Below are positions 15,404 through 63,700 of a stretch of DNA of 64,000 bases, piece after piece; position 1 is the stretch's first letter; every line of letters starts with the position of its first letter. Position numbers and translations under genes: made by a program. Below the pieces are notes generated by a model, which was not told the origin of the DNA, searched no databases, and saw nothing but the letters and a program-made list of their open reading frames with translations. Source of the stretch: an uncultured Gammaproteobacteria bacterium (lineage in GTDB: Bacteria > Pseudomonadota > Gammaproteobacteria > QNFE01 > CAZPSE01); assembly GCA_964589575.1 (NCBI GenBank), contig CAZPSE010000005.1, positions 1,611 to 65,610 on the forward strand, in the 5' to 3' direction.

Positions 15404-16042
15404 TTAAGCGATACTTTTTTTGTACAACTTTTCTGCAGCGTTTAATAATTCTTGTTGTTCTATAACGCCGTTAACGACCTCGTCGCCAAAAATAATGGTG
15501 GGTACGCTGGTCACTTCAAATTTGGTTGCCCATTTAATATAAATGGGTAAGTGGCTGGCAATTTTTTTATCTGCTATGGCATTTTCTACAAAGGCTTTAT
15601 CTAAACCAATAGTTTCTGCAAGGTTTACCAATTCTGTAAATTGGCCAATATTTTTTCCATCTTCAAACAGGTTTTTAAAAAGCGCACGGTGAACTTTATA
15701 AAACGTTTCTTTGCCCAGCTGTTTACTGGCTTCGGCGACTAAAATGGCATTGTGAGAGTTAACCGTGATGGATTGTTTTATTAGCTCTAAGTCGTCTTTA
15801 CTGGCCATGCTTTCTAAGTTGCTGGTTAAACTTTTAAATTCATTTTCTGTATAAGGTAAGTTTTTAAAACTTTTCCCTTCAATGGGGGTTTCTGGGTGTA
15901 TTTCTATAAAACACCAATTTATTTTTAAATCGTAGTGTTGGTTTAGTATCTCTAAACGTTTACTTGCAACGTAGCAAAATGGGCAACTGTAATCACTAAA
16001 AACACTAATTTTAAGTTCGGGTTTGCTCATCGTTATTCTCAT
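15404..16042 (-). CDS. DsbA-family thiol:disulfide oxidoreductase (FrnE/HCCA-isomerase-like)
   Basis: SDYSCPFCY CxxC active site near the N-terminus. 212 aa. No obvious signal peptide. Confidence 0.75.
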   Translation of the reverse strand: MRITMSKPELKISVFSDYSCPFCYVASKRLEILNQHYDLKINWCFIEIHPETPIEGKSFKNLPYTENEFKSLTSNLESMASKDDLELIKQSITVNSHNAILVAEASKQLGKETFYKVHRALFKNLFEDGKNIGQFTELVNLAETIGLDKAFVENAIADKKIASHLPIYIKWATKFEVTSVPTIIFGDEVVNGVIEQQELLNAAEKLYKKSIA

Positions 16043-16261: not shown

Positions 16262-16300
16262 AACCCCAAGTAAAAAACTACTTAGGGGTTTTGAATAATG
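16262..16300. terminator. Bidirectional rho-independent terminator
   Basis: CCCCAAGTAAAAAACTACTTAGGGG stem-loop flanked by an A-run upstream and a T-run downstream. Lies directly 3' of the minus-strand gene ending at 16340. Confidence 0.6.
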
Positions 16301-16339: not shown

Positions 16340-16951
16340 TTACTTAGCAGGGGCTGCAGGTTTAGTAGGGGCCGCGGCTAGAGGAGCCGTTTGCTGTGCT
16401 TTCATTTTAGCGACAAATGCGTCATAAGCTTTTTTCTGTTGCGCCATTAAATCTATACGTTGTTGTTGTGCGTTTAATAAAAACTCTTGCTGGGCTTTGC
16501 GCTGTGCATTCATTTGCTTTTGCATTTCTGCAGACGGTGCTCGCATCATTTGTGATGGAGCAGGGTAGCGTGAATTAAAACGATTATTGTTGCCCTGTTG
16601 GCTTGCAAAGTTGTTGGCATTGTTCATGTTGTTATTGCCATAACCGCTACCTTTAAAATTGTTATTGCTTGAGCCTGTACCACGGCCGTCAAAGTTGCTG
16701 TTCATTTTACTGTTGCCTTTACCGCTCATGCGAAAGTCAAAGCTGCCTTCGCCTGTTGCGTCGCCTGTACCACGGCCACTGCTGTTACCGGTGTAGTTGC
16801 CGTAAGCATTACCGTAACTGTTGCCACTTTGGTTGCCGTAACCGTTATTAGTCCAGTTTCCGTAACCGTTACTATTGTTGTTAAATGCATTAGCCGTTGT
16901 AGATAGTGCTAATGCGCCTGCGATTAACGCGATAGTTGCAAGTTTTTTCAT
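16340..16951 (-). CDS. Secreted Asn/Gly/Tyr-rich low-complexity protein with a Gln-rich helical C-terminus
   Basis: Signal peptide MKKLATIALIAGALALSTTANA. About 110 aa of (N/G/S/Y) repeats (GYGNWTNNGYGNQSGNSYGNAYGNYTGN). The C-terminal MQKQMNAQRKAQQEFLLNAQQQRIDLMAQQ resembles the LTxxQ/CpxP/Spy/ZraP type. Confidence 0.65.
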   Translation of the reverse strand: MKKLATIALIAGALALSTTANAFNNNSNGYGNWTNNGYGNQSGNSYGNAYGNYTGNSSGRGTGDATGEGSFDFRMSGKGNSKMNSNFDGRGTGSSNNNFKGSGYGNNNMNNANNFASQQGNNNRFNSRYPAPSQMMRAPSAEMQKQMNAQRKAQQEFLLNAQQQRIDLMAQQKKAYDAFVAKMKAQQTAPLAAAPTKPAAPAK

Positions 16952-17085
16952 AGTAGTGACCTTGGTAAGTTGTGTTTAAGACGGATACCCGCTTAAGATT
17001 AGTATATTGGTTAAAACCTATGCGTTCAACTTAAGCGGTATCTTTGTTGATAACAAGTACTGAAAACATTGTAAACGTACTTCCT

Positions 17086-17598
17086 TTAACGTCTAGGTTG
17101 GGGTCTTTGTTGATTATTGTAAGGCGCATAAGTATTGAATTGTTGCTGTTGTTTGTTTGTTGCATTCCAAGTGTTTCCATTTTTGTAATAATGGTCTGCA
17201 TAAGCATTACTGTTACCTTGTCCTTGGTAGTTATTTTCTGCACGGAGGTCGCCATCCATTTTCATTTTAAACTTCATGTCTAAGTCCATATCAAGGTTCA
17301 TATCCATGTCGCCTATGCCGTTACCAAAAAAGTCATTCATGCCAAATGCGTCGCCATTAAAAAAACCGTTGTTTGCATTGTTGTAATTGTTTTGGCCGTT
17401 GTAACGGTTGTTGTACCTATTGTTGTAATTTGCATTGCCGCCATTATTGGGGTAATTGCCGTAGTTATTATTAGAATAATTATTGTTGTTACCCCAAAAA
17501 GAGTCCATAGGGTTAAAACCGTTATTGCCCCAAAATGCAAATGCATTGGTAGATACTAGTAGTATGCTGATGATTGAAACTTTGCTGATGAATTTCAT
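17086..17598 (-). CDS. Secreted Asn/Tyr/Gly-rich low-complexity protein with a Met/Asp-rich segment
   Basis: Signal peptide MKFISKVSIISILLVSTNAFA. NNYSNNNYGNYPNNGGNANYNNRYNNRYNGQNNYNNANNG repeats. DMDMNLDMDLDMKFKMKMDGD block. Composition is paralogous to the adjacent gene. Confidence 0.6.
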   Translation of the reverse strand: MKFISKVSIISILLVSTNAFAFWGNNGFNPMDSFWGNNNNYSNNNYGNYPNNGGNANYNNRYNNRYNGQNNYNNANNGFFNGDAFGMNDFFGNGIGDMDMNLDMDLDMKFKMKMDGDLRAENNYQGQGNSNAYADHYYKNGNTWNATNKQQQQFNTYAPYNNQQRPQPRR

Positions 17599-17675
17599 GG
17601 TGGTGTCCGTCTATTTTTATAATATTTATTTAGATAGAATCATATTAGAAAAAACTAATATAGTCAAGTTTTGGG

Positions 17676-18680
17676 CTATTTCGTTGCTTTTAAAATGTCT
17701 TGTATTAATTGTGGGCCATGATAAATATAGCCTGTGTACAGTTGTATTAAATCGGCACCATTTTCAAACTTTTGTTTAGCATCTTTTGCCGACATAATAC
17801 CGCCAACAGCGATAATGGGCAGTTTATCACCCACAATATTTTTGAGCTTAATCAATAATTCGTTTGACATATTGGTAAGCGGCGCACCACTTAAACCGCC
17901 TTGTTCTGCACCATAAATATGATGCTGTACTGCCTTTTTATTTAAGGTCGTATTGGTGGCGATGATGCCGTCTAGGTTATTTTTTAAAATAATTGAAACG
18001 GTACTTTGCAGTTCTGTGTCACTTAAATCGGGTGCTATTTTTACTGCGATAGGGGTGTATTTACCGTGTTTTTTGTGTAAAACGGATTGTTCTTTTTTCA
18101 AACTGGCTAAAAGTGTGTTTAATTCATCACCGTGTTGCAAATCACGCAAGCCCGGTGTGTTGGGTGACGATATATTGACGGTAATATAATCGGCATAACA
18201 ATACGCTTTTTGAAAACAAATAATATAATCATCAACGGCTTTTTCATTTGGTGTATTTTTGTTTTTGCCAATATTTATACCAATAACCACATGGCTATTT
18301 TTCTTTTTTACTTGGCTAATACCGTGATCAATACCTTTGTTATTAAAACCCATTCTATTAATTATGGCACTGTGCTGCTCTAGCCTAAAAAGGCGTGGTT
18401 TTGCATTGCCTTCTTGGGCAACGGGCGTTAATGTGCCAATTTCTATAAAGCCAAACCCTTGGCTGGCTAAAGCATCTATGTAGTCACCATTTTTATCTAA
18501 CCCGGCGGCTAAACCTAACTTATTAGGAAAGTGAATACCCATCACTTTAATGGGGTTAGCGTGTTTTTTTAGTAAAATTTGCCATGCAAACTGGCTTACT
18601 TGTAAACTTTTTAACGCTAAATAATGAGAGGTTTCTGCATCAAGCTTGAACAGTAATGATTTAATGGCGCAATAGAGCAT
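17676..18680 (-). CDS. pyrD: Dihydroorotate dehydrogenase (quinone)
   Basis: Collinear with E. coli PyrD (GLAAGLDKNGD, NRMGFNN, NISSPNTPGLR, IIAVGGI). 334 aa. Confidence 0.95.
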   Translation of the reverse strand: MLYCAIKSLLFKLDAETSHYLALKSLQVSQFAWQILLKKHANPIKVMGIHFPNKLGLAAGLDKNGDYIDALASQGFGFIEIGTLTPVAQEGNAKPRLFRLEQHSAIINRMGFNNKGIDHGISQVKKKNSHVVIGINIGKNKNTPNEKAVDDYIICFQKAYCYADYITVNISSPNTPGLRDLQHGDELNTLLASLKKEQSVLHKKHGKYTPIAVKIAPDLSDTELQSTVSIILKNNLDGIIATNTTLNKKAVQHHIYGAEQGGLSGAPLTNMSNELLIKLKNIVGDKLPIIAVGGIMSAKDAKQKFENGADLIQLYTGYIYHGPQLIQDILKATK

Positions 18681-54246: not shown

Positions 54247-57200
54247 ATGCCAAAAAGAGACGATATTAATAGCATATTAATAATTGGCGCAGGCCCCATT
54301 ATTATTGGTCAAGCGTGCGAGTTTGACTATTCTGGCGCGCAAGCATGTAAAGCATTAAAAGAAGAAGGTTACCGTGTGGTGCTGGTTAACTCTAACCCCG
54401 CCACCATTATGACCGACCCAGAAATGGCCGATGCCACATACATCGAACCAATTACGTGGCAGATGGTTGAAAAAATCATCGAGATTGAAAAACCAGACGC
54501 AATATTACCCACCATGGGTGGTCAAACCGCATTAAATTGCGCTTTAGATTTGGATAGCCAAGGTGTATTGGCCAAACATAACATACAAATGATTGGTGCC
54601 AGTCGCGAAGCGATAGACATGGCAGAAGACCGCGATAAATTTCGTAAAGCGATGACAGAAATTGGCTTAAATACACCTAAAGCCTTTATCGCCCATTCTA
54701 TGGAAGAAGCCAATCAAGGCCAAGCGCAAATAGGCTTTCCTTGTATTATTCGCCCCTCGTTTACAATGGGTGGTAGTGGCGGTGGCATCGCCTACAATAA
54801 AGACGAATTTGTTGAAATTATCACCCGTGGTTTAGATATGTCACCAACCACAGAAGTATTGATTGAAGAATCGGTATAGGCTTGTAAAGAATACGAAATG
54901 GAAGTAGTACGTGATACTGCCGATAACTGCATTATTATTTGTTCTATCGAAAATTTTGACCCGTGTGGCGTACACACCGGAGACTCTATAACGGTAGCAC
55001 CGGCACAAACGCTTACCGATAAAGAATACCAAATTATGCGTAATGCATCGTTAGCTGTACTACGAAAAATAGGCGTAGAAACAGGGGGGTCAAACGTACA
55101 GTTTGCCATTAACCCTAAAAATGGGGCGATGATTATCATCGAGATGAATCCGCGTGTATCGCGCTCATCGGCACTAGCATCTAAAGCGACCGGTTTTCCT
55201 ATTGCTAAAATAGCCGCTAAATTAGCTGTTGGTTATACTTTAGATGAGCTAAGCAATGACATAACCGGTGGCAAAACACCGGCATCGTTTGAGCCATCTA
55301 TAGATTATGTGGTCACTAAAATACCGCGCTTCACGTTTGAAAAATTCCCCAAGGCAGACGATCATTTAACCACGCAAATGAAGTCGGTCGGTGAAGTTAT
55401 GGCCATTGGCCGTACTTTTCAAGAATCATTACAAAAAGCCTTACGTGGTTTAGAAATTGATACAGATGGCCTAAATGAAATGTTGCCACGCGACATAAGT
55501 GACATCGATGCCGAAAATATACTAAGGCAAGAGTTAAGCCTACCAAGGGATAGACGGCTTTGGTATGTAGCGGATGCTTTTAGACGCGGTTACAGCGTTA
55601 AACAAATTTTTGATATTTGCGCCATAGACCCTTGGTTTTTAGCGAACATAGAAAACTTAGTGCAAGAAGAAAAAATCATAGAAGCAATGACGCTACCGGA
55701 GTTAGGTAAAGACCACTTATACCGCTTAAAACAAAAAGGTTTTGCCGACAGCCGTATTGCGCATTGCATAGGCTGTGGCGAAAATGACGTACGTGCCGTT
55801 CGACACGAAATGAATATGCACCCCGTTTATAAACGGGTAGATACTTGCGCGGCAGAATTTGCTACCGATACCGCTTATTTATACTCGACCTACGAAGAAG
55901 AATGCGAAGCCAACCCAACCGATAACGACAAAATAGTTATTTTAGGTGGTGGACCAAACCGAATTGGCCAAGGAATAGAGTTTGACTATTGTTGCGTACA
56001 TGCCGCCATGGCGATGCGCGAAATGGGTCTTGAGACCATAATGGTTAACTGTAACCCAGAAACTGTATCGACCGACTACGATACCTCTGACCGATTGTAT
56101 TTTGAATCGTTAACCTTAGAAGACGTATTAGAAATATTACACAAAGAAAAGCCAAAAGGTGTAATAGTGCAATACGGCGGTCAAACCCCACTAAAATTGG
56201 CAGAAGCATTACAACAAGCGGGCGCACCAATAATAGGAACCTCACCAGATTCGATAGATTTAGCCGAAGATCGTGAACGGTTTCAACAATTAGTCGACAA
56301 AGTAGGGGTAAAACAACCGCCCAACCGTACCGCACGTAATGAAAAAGACGCAGTAACCGCGGCAGAAGAAATTGGTTATCCTTTAGTGGTTCGTCCCTCT
56401 TATGTACTGGGTGGGCGGGCAATGGAAATTGTTCATAACGAAACTGACCTAATGCGCTATATGACCGAAGCGGTATCAGTATCTAACGATTCGCCGGTAT
56501 TGTTAGACCGTTTTTTAGATGACGCGATAGAAGTGGATATAGATGCCGTATGTGACGGTGAACAAGTGGTTATTGGCGCAATTATGGAACACATTGAACA
56601 AGCAGGCGTTCACTCTGGAGACTCTGCCTGTTCACTACCACCGTATACCTTGTCTAACGAAATACAAGACCGTTTGCGTGAGCAAATGAAAAAGCTCGGT
56701 TTAGCATTAAAAGTTAATGGCTTAATGAACGCCCAGTTTGCCGTTAAGGGCGACGATATTTACATTTTAGAAGTGAACCCGCGTGCATCACGCACGGTAC
56801 CGTTTGTATCTAAAGCCATTGGTTACCCAATTGCTAAAATAGCGGCCAAAGTAATGGCGGGGCAAAGCTTACAACAGCAAGGTTTTACCGAAGAACACAT
56901 ACCTAAATTTTACAACGTAAAAGAGGCGGTGTTCCCCTTTGTTAAGTTCCCCGGTGTCGACCCTATTTTAGGCCCAGAGATGAAATCGACCGGTGAAGTA
57001 ATGGCAACCGGCGGCTCTTTTGGCGAAGCCTTTTTTAAAGCATTAATGGCCGGCGGTACAGAATTACCTGCAGGTGGTAAAGCCTTTATAAGTGTGCGCG
57101 ACCAAGATAAAAAGTATGCAGTCAACATTGCTAAAAGCTTAAACGCATTAGGCTTTAAAATGGTGGCAACGGGTGGTACAGCTGTCGTTATCCAAGAAGC

Positions 57201-57459
57201 AGGTTATGCGTGTGAACAAATTAATAAAGTAAAAGAAGGCCGACCACACATTGTAGACTTGATTAAAAACGACGATGTTGATTTAATCATTAATACCACC
57301 GAAGGTTCGGCGGCGATTGCCGACTCTTTCGAGATACGACGTGAATCGTTAAATCATAAAATTCCTTATTCCACCACTATTAACGGCGGTAAGGCTATGT
57401 GTATGGCGATGAGTTACTCGCAAGAGTTAAAACCTTATAAATTACAAGATCTTATATGA
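54247..57459 (+). pseudogene. carB: Carbamoyl-phosphate synthase large subunit interrupted by one in-frame TAG at 54877..54879
   Basis: 54247..54879 and 54898..57459 are in the same frame and together are collinear with E. coli CarB (1073 aa). The local sequence reads [16 protein letters not shown] versus the conserved ES(L/V)(I/L)GWKEYEME. No other disruption is seen. Confidence 0.8.
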
Positions 57460-59814: not shown

Positions 59815-60008
59815 GTTAATCAGGACTTCCTTGAGGAAGAACTGATTAACTGGGTTAGAATTGCGCTGAGAAAAAAGTGTCGCTATTTTTCGCGAAGTGA
59901 GTCGTAATAGTCGCTCTATTGCAACGAACTTCGGGGAAAATAGCGACACTTTTAGCCAGTGCAAAATAAGCTCAGTTGATCAGTTCTTCCTCAAGGAAAC
60001 CCTGAACT
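59815..60008. repeat. MITE-like repeat, copy E (palindromic ends CCTTGAGGAAGAACTGAT(T/C)AAC)
   Basis: Left end GTTAATCAGGACTTCCTTGAGGAAGAACTGATTAAC forms a nested hairpin. Right end GTTGATCAGTTCTTCCTCAAGGAAACCCTGAAC. The right end supplies the last codons and stop of glcF. Confidence 0.65.
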
Positions 60009-61208
60009 GCATTCATCAATCAGCTCGCACCAGTGCTGTATAGGTATGTTTAAATCGGCATGTAAATGATTAATGCAGCCAATATTATTACTGACCACTC
60101 TATCGGGTAAATTAACGGTTAAATCGTTAACTTTGTCCTTTTTAATTTTGGTAGATAATTGCGGGTTCATTGCCGAATAAAGCCCAGCAGAACCACAGCA
60201 TAAGTGGGCATTGTTTGTGTCTACCAAATTAAAACCTAATGCCGTTAAATTACCGTCTAAAGTGTTTGGGTTTTTTTGCCAATGTTGTAAAGAGCAGGGT
60301 GTATGGCAAGCAATTTTTTCATTTGTTGGTGTTACATTTAGCGTTTTTAGCTTCGCTAAATCAAAATAATCAACGCTGTCATACGTTGTTTTTAGTAACT
60401 TTTTTGCTTTATTAGCATATTCGCTAACGCCTTCTAAGTGTTGGGCATACTGTTTAATAAATGCGCTGCAACCGCTAGCGGTTATCAATAATGGTTGCTT
60501 TTCTTTTGCCCAAATATCAATATTACGTTTCATTTTTTTAATGGCAGCAGGTTTATTGCCTGCATGCCAGTCTATCGCGCCACAGCATTGTTCTTTGTCA
60601 CAATGGATGGCTTTGGTTTGGCTTTTATGCAGCAAGTTTTCTATACTTTGGTTAATTTCGGGGGCTAAAACACGCTGTACACAGCCTTTAAACAATATAA
60701 CCTGTTGTTTTATGTTACTGGGTAAGGGCAAGGGGTCGACGCTACGGGGTGTTTTAAACGTCGCTTTTAAAACATTGGGTAACAAAGGTTTGGATAACTT
60801 AAATGCTAAAAAGATTAATGAAAAGCGAATGGGGTAGGGCAATGTTTGTGTGAAGAACCAATATTTTAGTTTGGTAATAAAACCATTAGAGGTCGACTCT
60901 TTTAATATGTCTTGTCCTATTTCATACAACTTTCCGTACTCAACACCCGACGGGCAAGTGCTTTCACAGTTTCTACATTGCAAGCACAAGTTTAAATGCT
61001 CTAAAGTAGTTTTAGTGGCGGGTTGCCCTTCTACTATTTGTTTGATTAAATAAATACGTCCGCGTGGCGAGTTAAGCTCGTTACCGGTTTTTAAATAGGT
61101 CGGGCAGGTGGCATTGCAAAAACCGCAATGTACACAACTGCGGAGTATTTTATCGGCCAGTTTGCCTTTGGCAGTATTGGCATATTTAGGGGCAAGGTTG
61201 GTTTGCAT
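59991..61208 (-). CDS. glcF: Glycolate oxidase iron-sulfur subunit
   Basis: Two 4Fe-4S ferredoxin motifs (CVHCGFCNATCP, CLQCRNCESTCP) and C-terminal CCG domains. 405 aa versus 407 aa in E. coli GlcF. Confidence 0.85.
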   Translation of the reverse strand: MQTNLAPKYANTAKGKLADKILRSCVHCGFCNATCPTYLKTGNELNSPRGRIYLIKQIVEGQPATKTTLEHLNLCLQCRNCESTCPSGVEYGKLYEIGQDILKESTSNGFITKLKYWFFTQTLPYPIRFSLIFLAFKLSKPLLPNVLKATFKTPRSVDPLPLPSNIKQQVILFKGCVQRVLAPEINQSIENLLHKSQTKAIHCDKEQCCGAIDWHAGNKPAAIKKMKRNIDIWAKEKQPLLITASGCSAFIKQYAQHLEGVSEYANKAKKLLKTTYDSVDYFDLAKLKTLNVTPTNEKIACHTPCSLQHWQKNPNTLDGNLTALGFNLVDTNNAHLCCGSAGLYSAMNPQLSTKIKKDKVNDLTVNLPDRVVSNNIGCINHLHADLNIPIQHWCELIDECSSGFP

Positions 61209-61211
61209 TGT

Positions 61212-62237
61212 TTAACCCCCGCAATTAATAAGTTGGTAAGGGTCAAAGGCCAGCTTTAGTTTTTGTTTGTATATGTCTAACAGCGTTGGCTTTTTTCTTA
61301 ATTGCTTATTAGCCTTAAACAATTGTGCAGCCGCTAAGTTTTCTGGTTTATTATCACTTTTTAACCATCGTAAACCACCTGCCCAATCTATTAATATTTC
61401 ATCTGTTGGTGCCAGTTTTATGGCGGGTGCGTCTACTGCGGTATTCATTTTATATATAGACTGTCTGGATGGGTCATATTTAAAAATAGGGTGGCTGTAA
61501 TTATTTAATGTTTGCCAAATAGTGTTATTTGCATGTTTATATTCATGCGGACAAGTTTTTTGAAATGTTTCAACCGAATCTTGATAACCTGAAAGCTGAA
61601 TGGTTAGTTGTTGCTGGTAATAAGCCATGGCACTAATTGGTGAGGCTTTTTGGCGATAATGGTTCATTAACTTTATAGCAGAAGACTGGTTAGCTTCAAT
61701 AACAATACTTTGCGTTGTTTGCGCCATAGGGATAACTTTAATGGCCATGTCTAAAATAATGCCATATTGACCAAACGCACCCACTTGCAAGCGCGACAAA
61801 TCAAAACCTGCTACATTTTTAATAACTGCACCACCAAACACGCAGTTTTCTGCCAAGCCATTTAACATTCTAACACCCAAAATAGCATCTTTTACAGAGC
61901 CTAAAAAGGGCAATGTCGAACCCGTTAAACCACAGGCAACAATGCCACCAATAGTGGTTTTGTCAGACAATATTGGGGGGCTAAACGGCAGTTGTTGGTG
62001 GTGTTTTGCCAAGGCTTGGTTTATTTCGTTTATGCTTGTTCCAGCCCTTACTTGTATCACTAACTCATCGGGTGCGTAATGAATAATGCCAGTATGTTGC
62101 GAAACATCAATGGCTTGACCGCTAAGGTTATGATTACTAAATAAACCTAAACTGTTGCCATTAATAATTTTAACCGCTTGTTTATTTTCTACCGCTTCGG
62201 TTAATTGTTGGTGTATTTTTTGACTGTTATCTGGCAC
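61212..62237 (-). CDS. glcE: Glycolate oxidase FAD-binding subunit
   Basis: FAD-binding PCMH-type domain (GGLRW...). 341 aa. Lies between glcD and glcF in the conserved order. Confidence 0.8.
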   Translation of the reverse strand: MPDNSQKIHQQLTEAVENKQAVKIINGNSLGLFSNHNLSGQAIDVSQHTGIIHYAPDELVIQVRAGTSINEINQALAKHHQQLPFSPPILSDKTTIGGIVACGLTGSTLPFLGSVKDAILGVRMLNGLAENCVFGGAVIKNVAGFDLSRLQVGAFGQYGIILDMAIKVIPMAQTTQSIVIEANQSSAIKLMNHYRQKASPISAMAYYQQQLTIQLSGYQDSVETFQKTCPHEYKHANNTIWQTLNNYSHPIFKYDPSRQSIYKMNTAVDAPAIKLAPTDEILIDWAGGLRWLKSDNKPENLAAAQLFKANKQLRKKPTLLDIYKQKLKLAFDPYQLINCGG

Positions 62238-62239
62238 GG

Positions 62240-63700
62240 TTAAAACCTTTCCAATTCGGGGAAGGGTAATTCGCCATTATGCACATGCATTGCGCCCAAT
62301 TCTGCACAACGGTGCAGTTCGGGGATGGTTTTATTGGGATTGAGCATCTTTTTATCGTCAAAAGCTGCACGTACACGGTGAAACTGATCCAGTTCTGCTT
62401 GGCTAAATTGGTCGCACATTTGGTCAATTTTTTCCATACCTACGCCATGTTCCCCCGTTATAGTGCCGCCTACTTTAATGCTTAGTTTTAGTATTTCTGC
62501 ACCAAAGGCTTCGGCTTTATGTAGTTGTTCGGCCTCGTTTGCATCGTACAATATTAGTGGGTGTAAATTGCCGTCACCTGCATGAAATACATTGGCAACG
62601 GCTAAACCGTATTTTTTAGACAAACCGTAAATAGACTCTAAAACAAAGGTTAATTGCGCTTTAGGTATGGTGCCGTCCATGCAGTAATAATCGGGCGCAA
62701 TACGACCGACTGCTGGAAAGGCGTTTTTACGGCCTTTCCATAAAAGCTCAGCTTCGGTTGCATCTTTGGCTATACGTAAGTCAAAACAGTTATTGGCTTT
62801 TAGCAAGGGGTCGACGATTTTAAGCTGTTCTTCAATGTCCGACTCGGTGCCGTCCAGTTCACAAATTAATATTACCTCTGCATTTAATGGGTAACCAACC
62901 TTAACAAAAGCTTCGGCCGCTTCTATGGCTAGTTTGTCCATCATTTCTAAACCTGCAGGTATTACGCCACTGGCGATAATGTCGCTAACAGATTTACCTG
63001 CATCGGCAATGGTATTAAATGCGGCTAACAGCACTTTTATTTTTGGGGGTTTGGGTTTTAGTTTAACGGTGATTTCTGTAAAAATGCCTAATAAACCTTC
63101 GGACCCTATGATAAGAGGGATAAGTTCACTGCCGTCGCTATCTAAACTGTCAGAGCCTATTTGTAAAATATCACCATTAGCTGTGACCAATTCTATTGCT
63201 TGAATATTATGTACCGTTAAACCGTACTTTAAGCAATGGACACCGCCCGAATTTTCTGCAACATTACCGCCAATGGTACAAGCAATTTGAGACGAAGGAT
63301 CGGGTGCATAAAATAAACCGTATTTTGCCACCGCTTGAGAGATCGCAATATTACGCACACCAGGTTGTACTTTAGCGGTTAACTGGTTGGGGTTAATTTC
63401 TAAAATGTTATTGAGTTTACTTAAACTTAATAAAACACCGTTTGTAGCAGGTAAAGCCCCACCAGATAACCCCGTACCCGCACCACGCGATACTATTGGC
63501 ATATTGCAGTTATAACAAGCTTTAATAATGGCTATAACTTGTTCTTTATTATTGGGTAAAAAAACCGCCAGTGGTAATGCTTGGTAAGCAGACAATCCGT
63601 CACACTCAAAGGGTGACATGGCTTCTTTAGTGGTTAAAATATCCAGTTTAGGAAAAGATTTTTTTAATTTACGTAATAATGCGTTTAAATTTTTATTCAT
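62240..63700 (-). CDS. glcD: Glycolate oxidase subunit GlcD (FAD-linked oxidase)
   Basis: FAD-binding domain (PLAVFLPNNKEQVIAIIKACYNCNMPIVSRGAGTGLSGGALP). 486 aa. Confidence 0.9.
   Translation of the reverse strand: MNKNLNALLRKLKKSFPKLDILTTKEAMSPFECDGLSAYQALPLAVFLPNNKEQVIAIIKACYNCNMPIVSRGAGTGLSGGALPATNGVLLSLSKLNNILEINPNQLTAKVQPGVRNIAISQAVAKYGLFYAPDPSSQIACTIGGNVAENSGGVHCLKYGLTVHNIQAIELVTANGDILQIGSDSLDSDGSELIPLIIGSEGLLGIFTEITVKLKPKPPKIKVLLAAFNTIADAGKSVSDIIASGVIPAGLEMMDKLAIEAAEAFVKVGYPLNAEVILICELDGTESDIEEQLKIVDPLLKANNCFDLRIAKDATEAELLWKGRKNAFPAVGRIAPDYYCMDGTIPKAQLTFVLESIYGLSKKYGLAVANVFHAGDGNLHPLILYDANEAEQLHKAEAFGAEILKLSIKVGGTITGEHGVGMEKIDQMCDQFSQAELDQFHRVRAAFDDKKMLNPNKTIPELHRCAELGAMHVHNGELPFPELERF

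Follow-up and report, generated by a model that had tools for sequence, protein, structure and literature searches.

A tandem pair of secreted Asn/Gly/Tyr-rich proteins beside pyrD in an uncultured gammaproteobacterium as probable diverged sulfur globule proteins

The 64,000-nucleotide stretch analyzed here (the window; contig CAZPSE010000005.1, positions 1,611 to 65,610) comes from an uncultured gammaproteobacterium, has a G+C content of about 38% over its full length, and contains two adjacent open reading frames (ORFs) on its minus strand that encode secreted low-complexity proteins. These are ORF2 (17086-17598, minus strand; 170 amino acids) and ORF1 (16340-16951, minus strand; 203 amino acids), and the description of the pair given in an earlier sequence-only reading of this DNA agrees exactly with the ORF list. 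The analysis presented below points to ORF1 as a member of the sulfur globule protein (SGP) family with a C-terminal helical extension, and to ORF2 as a probable, extremely Asn-rich SGP paralogue. The order along the minus strand is pyrD (17676-18680), ORF2, ORF1, a terminator-like hairpin, a cytoplasmic DsbA-family gene (15404-16042) and mltF, with holA as a further neighbor of the pair.

Each gene is preceded by a promoter-like site on the minus strand, TTGACT-17-TATGAT upstream of ORF2 (17639-17667; 10 of 12 consensus positions) and TTGAAC-17-TATACT upstream of ORF1 (17001-17029). Both are just sigma-70 consensus matches, and sites of this kind are no more numerous than in shuffled sequence. 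Downstream of ORF1, a hairpin resembling an intrinsic terminator is followed by a T-run (16264-16287). The terminator scan reported it on the minus strand only, and hence the strong terminator of the sequence-only reading is retained as a hairpin, but not as a bidirectional one. The spacer between ORF2 and ORF1 holds an inverted repeat, GATACCGCTTAAG / CTTAAGCGGGTATC (16984-17042, minus strand), with arms of 13/14 bp lying 32 nt apart and bracketing the ORF1 promoter-like site. Its RNA fold is no better than that of shuffles (z -1.6) and no second exact copy of its arm was found within the window; it could be a candidate operator or an RNA hairpin ending ORF2. DNA repeats within both ORFs are short and degenerate and therefore do not reflect a recent expansion, and two identical 15-nt repeats coding for GRGTG (repeat family D7) flank the ORF1 central motif. 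ORFs overlapping the pair in other frames are short, the longest spanning 98 amino acids, and an Rfam scan of the window yielded no match. Codon usage in ORF1 favors C-ending Asn, Tyr and Asp codons and CGY Arg codons above the window average, and that of ORF2 favors C-ending codons for Tyr and Asp only; as a proxy of expression this was given little weight, the window having no ribosomal-protein reference. The same DNA was assembled independently in a public run (Logan SRR9822617), as a 1346-bp contig identical throughout, and exact look-ups located the same genome only in that run and in one more sample. For PyrD, the DsbA-like protein, GlcD and the fumarase/aspartase-like protein, exact look-ups returned no record. 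The independent, identical assembly and the existence of relatives with the same architecture, described below, indicate that the gene pair is more than a product of chance. The idea that the 1.3 kb contig is a sign of high expression in a transcriptome was rejected, since the same run also holds 5-5.7 kb housekeeping contigs of the same genome.

Both predicted proteins start with a Sec-type signal peptide, in which a basic N-terminus leads into a hydrophobic core and then an A-x-A site, as judged by eye and by alignment with relatives, in keeping with what had been read from the sequence. In ORF1 this peptide (MKKLATIALIAGALALSTTANA, followed by F; amino acids 1-22, 16886-16951, minus strand) ends in ...TTANA before FNNN, and in ORF2 (MKFISKVSIISILLVSTNAFA, followed by FW; amino acids 1-21, 17536-17598, minus strand) it ends in ...TNAFA before FWGNN, aligning with the family signal peptide and with the F/W-W that comes after it. 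The mature proteins would span 181 (ORF1) and 149 (ORF2) amino acids. Residues 23-130 of ORF1 comprise 27% N, 20% G, 13% S and 6.5% Y, and residues 22-95 of ORF2 comprise 39% N, 16% G, 11% F and 9.5% Y. The enrichment originally described is thus genuine, but its extent was overstated, since N, G, S and Y jointly make up 67% of the ORF1 region and not almost all of it. Neither protein contains cysteine, which fits a structural rather than a catalytic role.

Within these low-complexity regions, both proteins carry a central motif. The ORF1 motif (GRGTGDATGEGSFDFRMSGKGNSKMNSNFDGRGTG, amino acids 59-93; 16673-16777, minus strand) aligns with GDASGAADFSMNFSGKGNTNMRSNSNF of the relative P0035 and with the motif of others. 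The ORF2 motif (DMDMNLDMDLDMKFKMKMDGD, amino acids 97-117; 17248-17310, minus strand) aligns with GDxDMDGDIEITIKxRGRG of P0003, P0012, P0014 and P0018-P0022, and presents 19 residues that alternate between polar and hydrophobic, with an acidic half followed by a basic half. AlphaFold2 models based on the family alignments predict ORF1 to be disordered over residues 16-129 and to form a single 48-residue, Gln/Lys/Ala-rich alpha-helix at residues 141-188 (16388-16531, minus strand; pLDDT, the per-residue model confidence, 91-97); ORF2 is modeled with low confidence throughout, with no secondary structure, as entirely disordered. The ORF1 helix is polar and weakly amphipathic (hydrophobic moment 0.03-0.27), and its second half follows a heptad pattern in part. 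These moments lend no support to an amphipathic helix that binds lipid or sulfur, and the modeled helix is more likely to mediate protein-protein contacts than surface binding. The protein closes with an Ala/Pro-rich end, ...PAAPAK (16343-16387, minus strand). In a family-wide comparison of C-termini, 18 of 30 sequences end in Lys, usually as AP[VAE]AK, among them ORF1 (C-terminus at 16343-16357) and the three Beggiatoaceae SGPs of PMC7356093; Lys accounts for only 4% of family residues.

Word-indexed homology searches with ORF1 alone or ORF2 alone produced no match, nor did a metagenome scan with ORF1 alone, and searches of PDB sequences returned chance-level matches only. Where these word-indexed searches had failed, homologues surfaced through an exhaustive phmmer search and a profile search. 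The phmmer search, using ORF1 as query against 1.84 billion (1.84e9) representative proteins, identified 14 relatives, the top three of which are full-length matches (P0001, E 4e-15; P0002, E 1e-07; P0003, E 2e-07). Most of the 14 match the Pfam family PF17228 (SGP, Sulphur globule protein), two of them, P0009 (42.8 bits) and P0014 (27.5 bits), above its gathering score of 26.7 bits; P0035 (54.2 bits) also exceeds this score, and sub-threshold matches are seen in nine proteins (P0001, P0003, P0005, P0007, P0008, P0010, P0012, P0018 and P0022). A profile of the pair and its relatives brought up 23 proteins, of which 13 have a precomputed PF17228 domain, and P0041 (MEJ2213600.1), a cluster-mate of one of them, bears the NCBI name 'sulfur globule family protein'. 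The sole named close relative of the window proteins is labeled 'hypothetical protein'. Most relatives share a common layout, in which the signal peptide is followed by F/W-W, Asn/Gly/Tyr repeats, a central motif of the type G-D-x-D-G-E-V-D-F-x-F-x-x-K-G-K-G, a further Gly/Tyr/Asn-rich segment, Y-x-A-P and, often, a terminal ...A-P-x-A-K.

The C-terminal half of P0009, encoded on a 1 kb metagenome contig, matches a transketolase fragment, and the protein is probably a chimeric gene call. In P0023, P0024 and P0028, an SGP-like N-terminal half is fused to a C-terminal OmpA-type peptidoglycan-binding domain (PF00691), which suggests a cell-wall anchor for some family members.

Shared composition could by itself produce such similarity, and this evident confounder was tested directly. 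A hidden Markov model (HMM) built from 14 PF17228-positive proteins, with the window sequences excluded, assigned 41.7 bits to ORF1 and 23.1 bits to ORF2, the latter with a bias term of 44, and these were the only window ORFs with E < 0.1. A model restricted to the mature region was then compared against 1000 shuffles of each protein, performed either globally or within 25-residue windows that keep the composition gradient. No shuffle out of 1000 reached the real score of the ORF1 mature region (z ~7-11), and 0-2 of 1000 did so for ORF2 (z ~4-6). Alignment of ORF1 to the PF17228-positive alignment with hhalign returned a probability of 98.4% (E 5.9e-15) over 91 columns and residues 1-107, and Smith-Waterman alignment of ORF1 to P0035, the 54-bit PF17228 match, yielded z values of 7-9 over shuffles. 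Between ORF1 and ORF2 themselves, BLASTP produced no alignment, and unfiltered Smith-Waterman a z of 3-5. Judged on these comparisons, ORF1 can be regarded as a secure but divergent relative of PF17228 proteins, and ORF2 as a probable one. The best argument for the membership of ORF2 is the alignment of its central motif with the GDxDMDGDIEITIKxRGRG subgroup, which is convincing by eye. The opinion that the pair has no known homologue, and the novelty attached to it, hence do not survive these searches, which uncovered clear homology to sulfur globule proteins, one of the families the sequence-only reading had itself named as able to overturn it. Its mention of such proteins as look-alikes, on the other hand, is upheld by the PF17228-positive relatives and by the HMM, shuffle and hhalign results.

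SGPs are exported through Sec and act as structural proteins of the globule envelope, of a keratin-like or plant-cell-wall-like kind. Globule-forming Proteobacteria have 1-6 copies, and SgpA can stand in for SgpB and vice versa (PMC10386293). The functional precedent comes from Beggiatoa leptomitoformis, in which globule formation and lithotrophic growth are both lost when a transposon disrupts the only SGP gene, and in which thiosulfate induces this gene about 10-fold (PMC7356093). The window proteins share with SgpA and SgpB of Allochromatium vinosum and with PF17228 a Sec signal peptide with an A-x-A end followed by an aromatic residue, a cysteine-free, repetitive Gly/Tyr(/Asn)-rich mature protein (family properties from PMC10386293), a central motif conserved as G-D-x-x-G-x-x-D-F-x-[MF]-x-x-x-G-[KR]-G, stand-alone genes amid housekeeping genes with more than one paralogue per genome, and a profile similarity that exceeds composition, securely so for ORF1 and less so for ORF2. 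They differ in having no direct Pfam match, in their tandem arrangement, in the greater length of their mature parts, in being dominated by Asn, which replaces much Gly, Tyr and Pro, and, for ORF1, in the extra 48-residue helix and Ala/Pro tail. A similar layout is apparent in the SGP of B. leptomitoformis D-402 (ALG67575.1) as well as in homologues of it in B. alba and Thioflexithrix, the sequences of which are printed in the supplement of PMC7356093. In these, the signal peptide is followed by AWW, a Gly-rich stretch, ...GSGWGDFNMSMGGGGRGYG..., a Tyr/Gly/Pro-rich stretch and a C-terminal ...APEAK, to be compared with ...APAK in ORF1; these proteins are Pro/Tyr/Gly-rich, have few Asn and, unlike ORF1, lack a helical tail. 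SgpD (Alvin_2515) of A. vinosum, a Sec-exported globule protein, is itself predicted to be helical or coiled-coil (PMC10386293). Compared by description, it resembles the long predicted helix of the ORF1 tail, but ORF1 joins its helix, a weakly amphipathic one, to an SgpA/B-like low-complexity core.

The ORF1 tail is a conserved module of an SGP subgroup, and this subgroup recurs at the same genomic position. Screening the retrieved PyrD neighborhoods with the SGP HMM revealed an SGP-like gene directly beside pyrD in three loci: L022, from an uncultured Thiothrix metagenome-assembled genome (MAG), L020, from the MAG of a gammaproteobacterium of a marine rock biofilm, and L104. The three pyrD-adjoining proteins have the full ORF1 architecture, including the C-terminal helix motif and the Ala/Pro tail. 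The helix motif, Q.QM.AQRAQ..AF.KKM, is common to ORF1, these three proteins, P0001 and P0002, and Smith-Waterman comparisons restricted to the tail of ORF1 and those of the three pyrD loci produced z values of 5.7, 3.9 and 3.0. The shared architecture and the adjacency to pyrD identify ORF1 as the positional counterpart of a pyrD-linked gene in Thiotrichales-like bacteria. The genes of these loci (L020, 5686-6534; L022, 4622-5479; L104, 2041-2856; all on the minus strand) also encode a spacer rich in Pro, Met and Gln, some 60-100 residues long, that separates the SGP core from the helical tail; ORF1 has no such spacer. Among other relatives, P0010 derives from a Cocleimonas MAG (Thiotrichaceae) and further ones from Thiohalomonas MAGs, and other relatives sit amid unrelated housekeeping genes, as is usual for sgp genes. 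In three MAG loci around P0014 and P0019 (L086, L087 and L088), the SGP gene comes right after a gene for a membrane-fusion protein and one of about 1290 amino acids, and before ParA/MipZ-like and dynamin-like genes; the ~1290-amino-acid gene matches the RND (ACR_tran) family in L088 only. The A. vinosum sgpD gene also adjoins a hydrophobe/amphiphile exporter (PMC10386293).

Taken together, we put at about 0.68 the probability that ORF2 and ORF1 are two diverged SGP paralogues (PF17228, SgpA/SgpB type) written in the Asn-rich 'dialect' of a gammaproteobacterium with 38% G+C. Several observations weigh against this assignment. Scanning ORF1 and ORF2 against Pfam-A with hmmscan (E up to 10) returned no PF17228 match, possibly because HMMER filters dropped it, and no NCBIfam model matched either protein. 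For ORF2, hhalign aligned only residues 1-25, that is, the signal peptide and FW, and Smith-Waterman comparison with relatives over shuffles (z 2-5) lends modest support beyond the signal peptide. The similarity of ORF1 and ORF2 to the three Beggiatoaceae SGPs, one of which has experimental support, does not rise above local-composition shuffles, and these three proteins themselves score about 0 on the PF17228-derived HMM after bias correction. The link to experimentally studied SGPs is therefore one of PF17228 intermediates and shared architecture, not of pairwise statistics. Classical SGPs measure 10-15 kDa, with 11-15 kDa reported for those of A. vinosum and Beggiatoa (PMC10386293, PMC7356093), and the mature ORF1 and ORF2 are larger. 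The scanned window ORFs, each of at least 150 amino acids, include no sox, dsr, sqr, fcc or apr gene. No close relative of the organism turned up by PyrD, which reached at most 57% identity in a set of 185,579 species genomes and 58% in metagenomes. Judging by the housekeeping contigs that it also carries from this genome, run SRR9822617 appears to consist of genomic or metagenomic DNA and not of a transcriptome.

Part of this evidence would also suit proteins of SGP ancestry that have taken up another role, as general components of the envelope or matrix that are secreted and disordered (for example a 'glue' in the periplasm or at the surface, part of a biofilm matrix or a phase-separating coat) with no link to sulfur storage. 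The lack of sulfur-oxidation genes among the scanned ORFs, the origin of some relatives from unclassified MAGs, the OmpA-type fusions that place the low-complexity module in cell-envelope contexts, and the fact that direct similarity to the Beggiatoa SGP is not demonstrable would all be accommodated. Such a change of role is nevertheless regarded as rather unlikely, given that every relative with a functional name or Pfam domain for the region points to SGPs, that the relatives with a classified host come from Thiothrix, Cocleimonas and Thiohalomonas, all of them from sulfur-oxidizing groups, and that no alternative family was matched. Curli-like functional amyloid subunits or prion-like proteins, to which the N/G/Y/Q-rich composition bears some resemblance, are a much weaker proposition, and one we consider very improbable. 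The Pfam scan revealed no match to Curlin_rpt, the repeat of the other family named in the sequence-only reading, or to any other amyloid family; there are no csg secretion genes nearby, and neither csgB/E/F/G-like nor fap-like neighbors; the imperfect repeats, as read from the sequence, lack the curli S-x5-Q-x-G-x-G-N-x-A register; and homology leads to SGPs instead. Prion or amyloid behavior is not needed to explain the sequences.

An equally slim chance is granted to a function in periplasmic stress or metal handling, in which the ORF1 helix would be an LTxxQ module like that of CpxP, Spy and ZraP and the Met/Asp-rich block of ORF2 a metal site. Both features exist, as the sequence-only reading had noted, the Gln-rich helix being predicted by AlphaFold2 with pLDDT >90 and the block coinciding with the ORF2 central motif; Gln-rich helices and a periplasmic location are indeed shared with CpxP, Spy and ZraP, and the window encodes a CDF cation-efflux protein and a MerR-family regulator, albeit ~29 kb away and unlinked to the locus. 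It is the proposed functions that find no support. Neither whole ORF1 nor its isolated tail matched LTXXQ, CpxP, Spy or Metal_resist models in Pfam or NCBIfam at E up to 5-10, and the LTxxQ motif is missing from the ORF1 sequence. The ORF2 block, for its part, aligns with the acidic-to-basic motif of the family, in which relatives have Ile, Val or Phe in place of the non-conserved Met, and it offers no His or Cys ligands. The family scans thus appear to largely refute this explanation. Long ORFs may also arise by accident from low-complexity DNA, and the pair could in principle be spurious ORFs in a compositionally odd non-coding region. This has a negligible probability in view of the signal peptides, the promoter-like sites upstream, the terminator after the pair and the short overlapping ORFs in other frames, and is in effect excluded by the conservation of the protein sequence, with relatives in other organisms that in some cases occupy the same genomic position. 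Most likely, then, ORF1 and ORF2 do not represent a new kind of prion-like or metal-binding protein.

Beyond the locus, the scanned window ORFs are housekeeping genes, including holA, proA, nadD, rng, yhdP, tldD, pmbA, type IV pilus genes, cysG, carAB, greA and glcDEF. The last of these are three adjacent genes (59991-63700, minus strand) with a CCG/4Fe-4S domain pair and an FAD-linked oxidase domain in the layout of glycolate oxidase GlcDEF, an assignment that relies on the Pfam domains of the two outer genes. The cluster would fit phosphoglycolate salvage and says nothing definite on autotrophy. The carB gene (54247-54879 and 54898-57459, plus strand) is interrupted by an in-frame TAG at 54877-54879. 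The interruption resembles a -1/+1 frameshift pair around a conserved stretch, which we take to be IGWKEY of E. coli CarB, and may stem either from faulty sequencing or assembly or from a genuine lesion. In a Logan contig of the same genome, the carB call (865 amino acids, running off the locus) seems to continue past this point.

For the SGP paralogues proposed here, a mechanism can be outlined by analogy with the published work on A. vinosum and B. leptomitoformis (PMC10386293, PMC7356093). ORF2 and ORF1 would each be transcribed from their own promoter, and their precursors would be exported through the Sec pathway to the periplasm, with cleavage of the signal peptide at A-x-A. The cysteine-free, disordered mature proteins would there assemble as a nanometer-thin envelope on periplasmic globules of elemental sulfur, with the two paralogues being partly redundant, as are SgpA and SgpB. 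We infer that the surface-active element would be the conserved stretch of alternating polar and hydrophobic residues (GEGSFDFRMSGKG in ORF1, DMDMNLDMDLDMKFKMKM in ORF2), which has the look of an interface-active beta-strand and could turn its hydrophobic face to the sulfur and its charged face to water. The Asn/Gly/Tyr repeats would form a cohesive layer, and the ORF1 helix with its Lys-terminated Ala/Pro tail could connect envelope proteins, either among themselves or with a different partner in the periplasm.

A more specific and decidedly doubtful proposal extends this last step. ORF1 would represent an undescribed SGP subclass, combining an SgpA/B-like disordered core, a conserved helix of about 48 residues and an Ala/Pro tail with an Ala-Lys end, encoded next to pyrD in distantly related Thiotrichales-like bacteria, and its helix and C-terminal Lys would tether the globule envelope to other envelope proteins or to the cell wall. 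The C-terminal Lys of Braun's lipoprotein is cross-linked to peptidoglycan, and the idea of a cell-wall tether stems from this analogy and from the SGP-OmpA fusions of other organisms. If true, tethering would explain in physical terms how periplasmic globules acquire and keep their position. The ORF1-type architecture of core, helix, terminal Ala-Lys and pyrD linkage finds no mention in the SGP literature cited here, and is the part that might repay further work.

The window proteins are most likely new additions to a known family, extreme in composition and missed by current models, and they illustrate how extreme composition can mask ordinary homology, the diagnosis of prion-like proteins without a homologue being an artefact of reading the sequence without searches. 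To our knowledge, the structural components known from a bacterial mineral-storage compartment are SGPs alone, and their annotation is poor. Asn-rich SGPs from low-G+C genomes would enlarge the range of sequences by which sulfur-storing bacteria can be recognized in genomes and metagenomes, and the pyrD-linked helical tail with its terminal Lys may offer a concrete handle on how the globule envelope is built.

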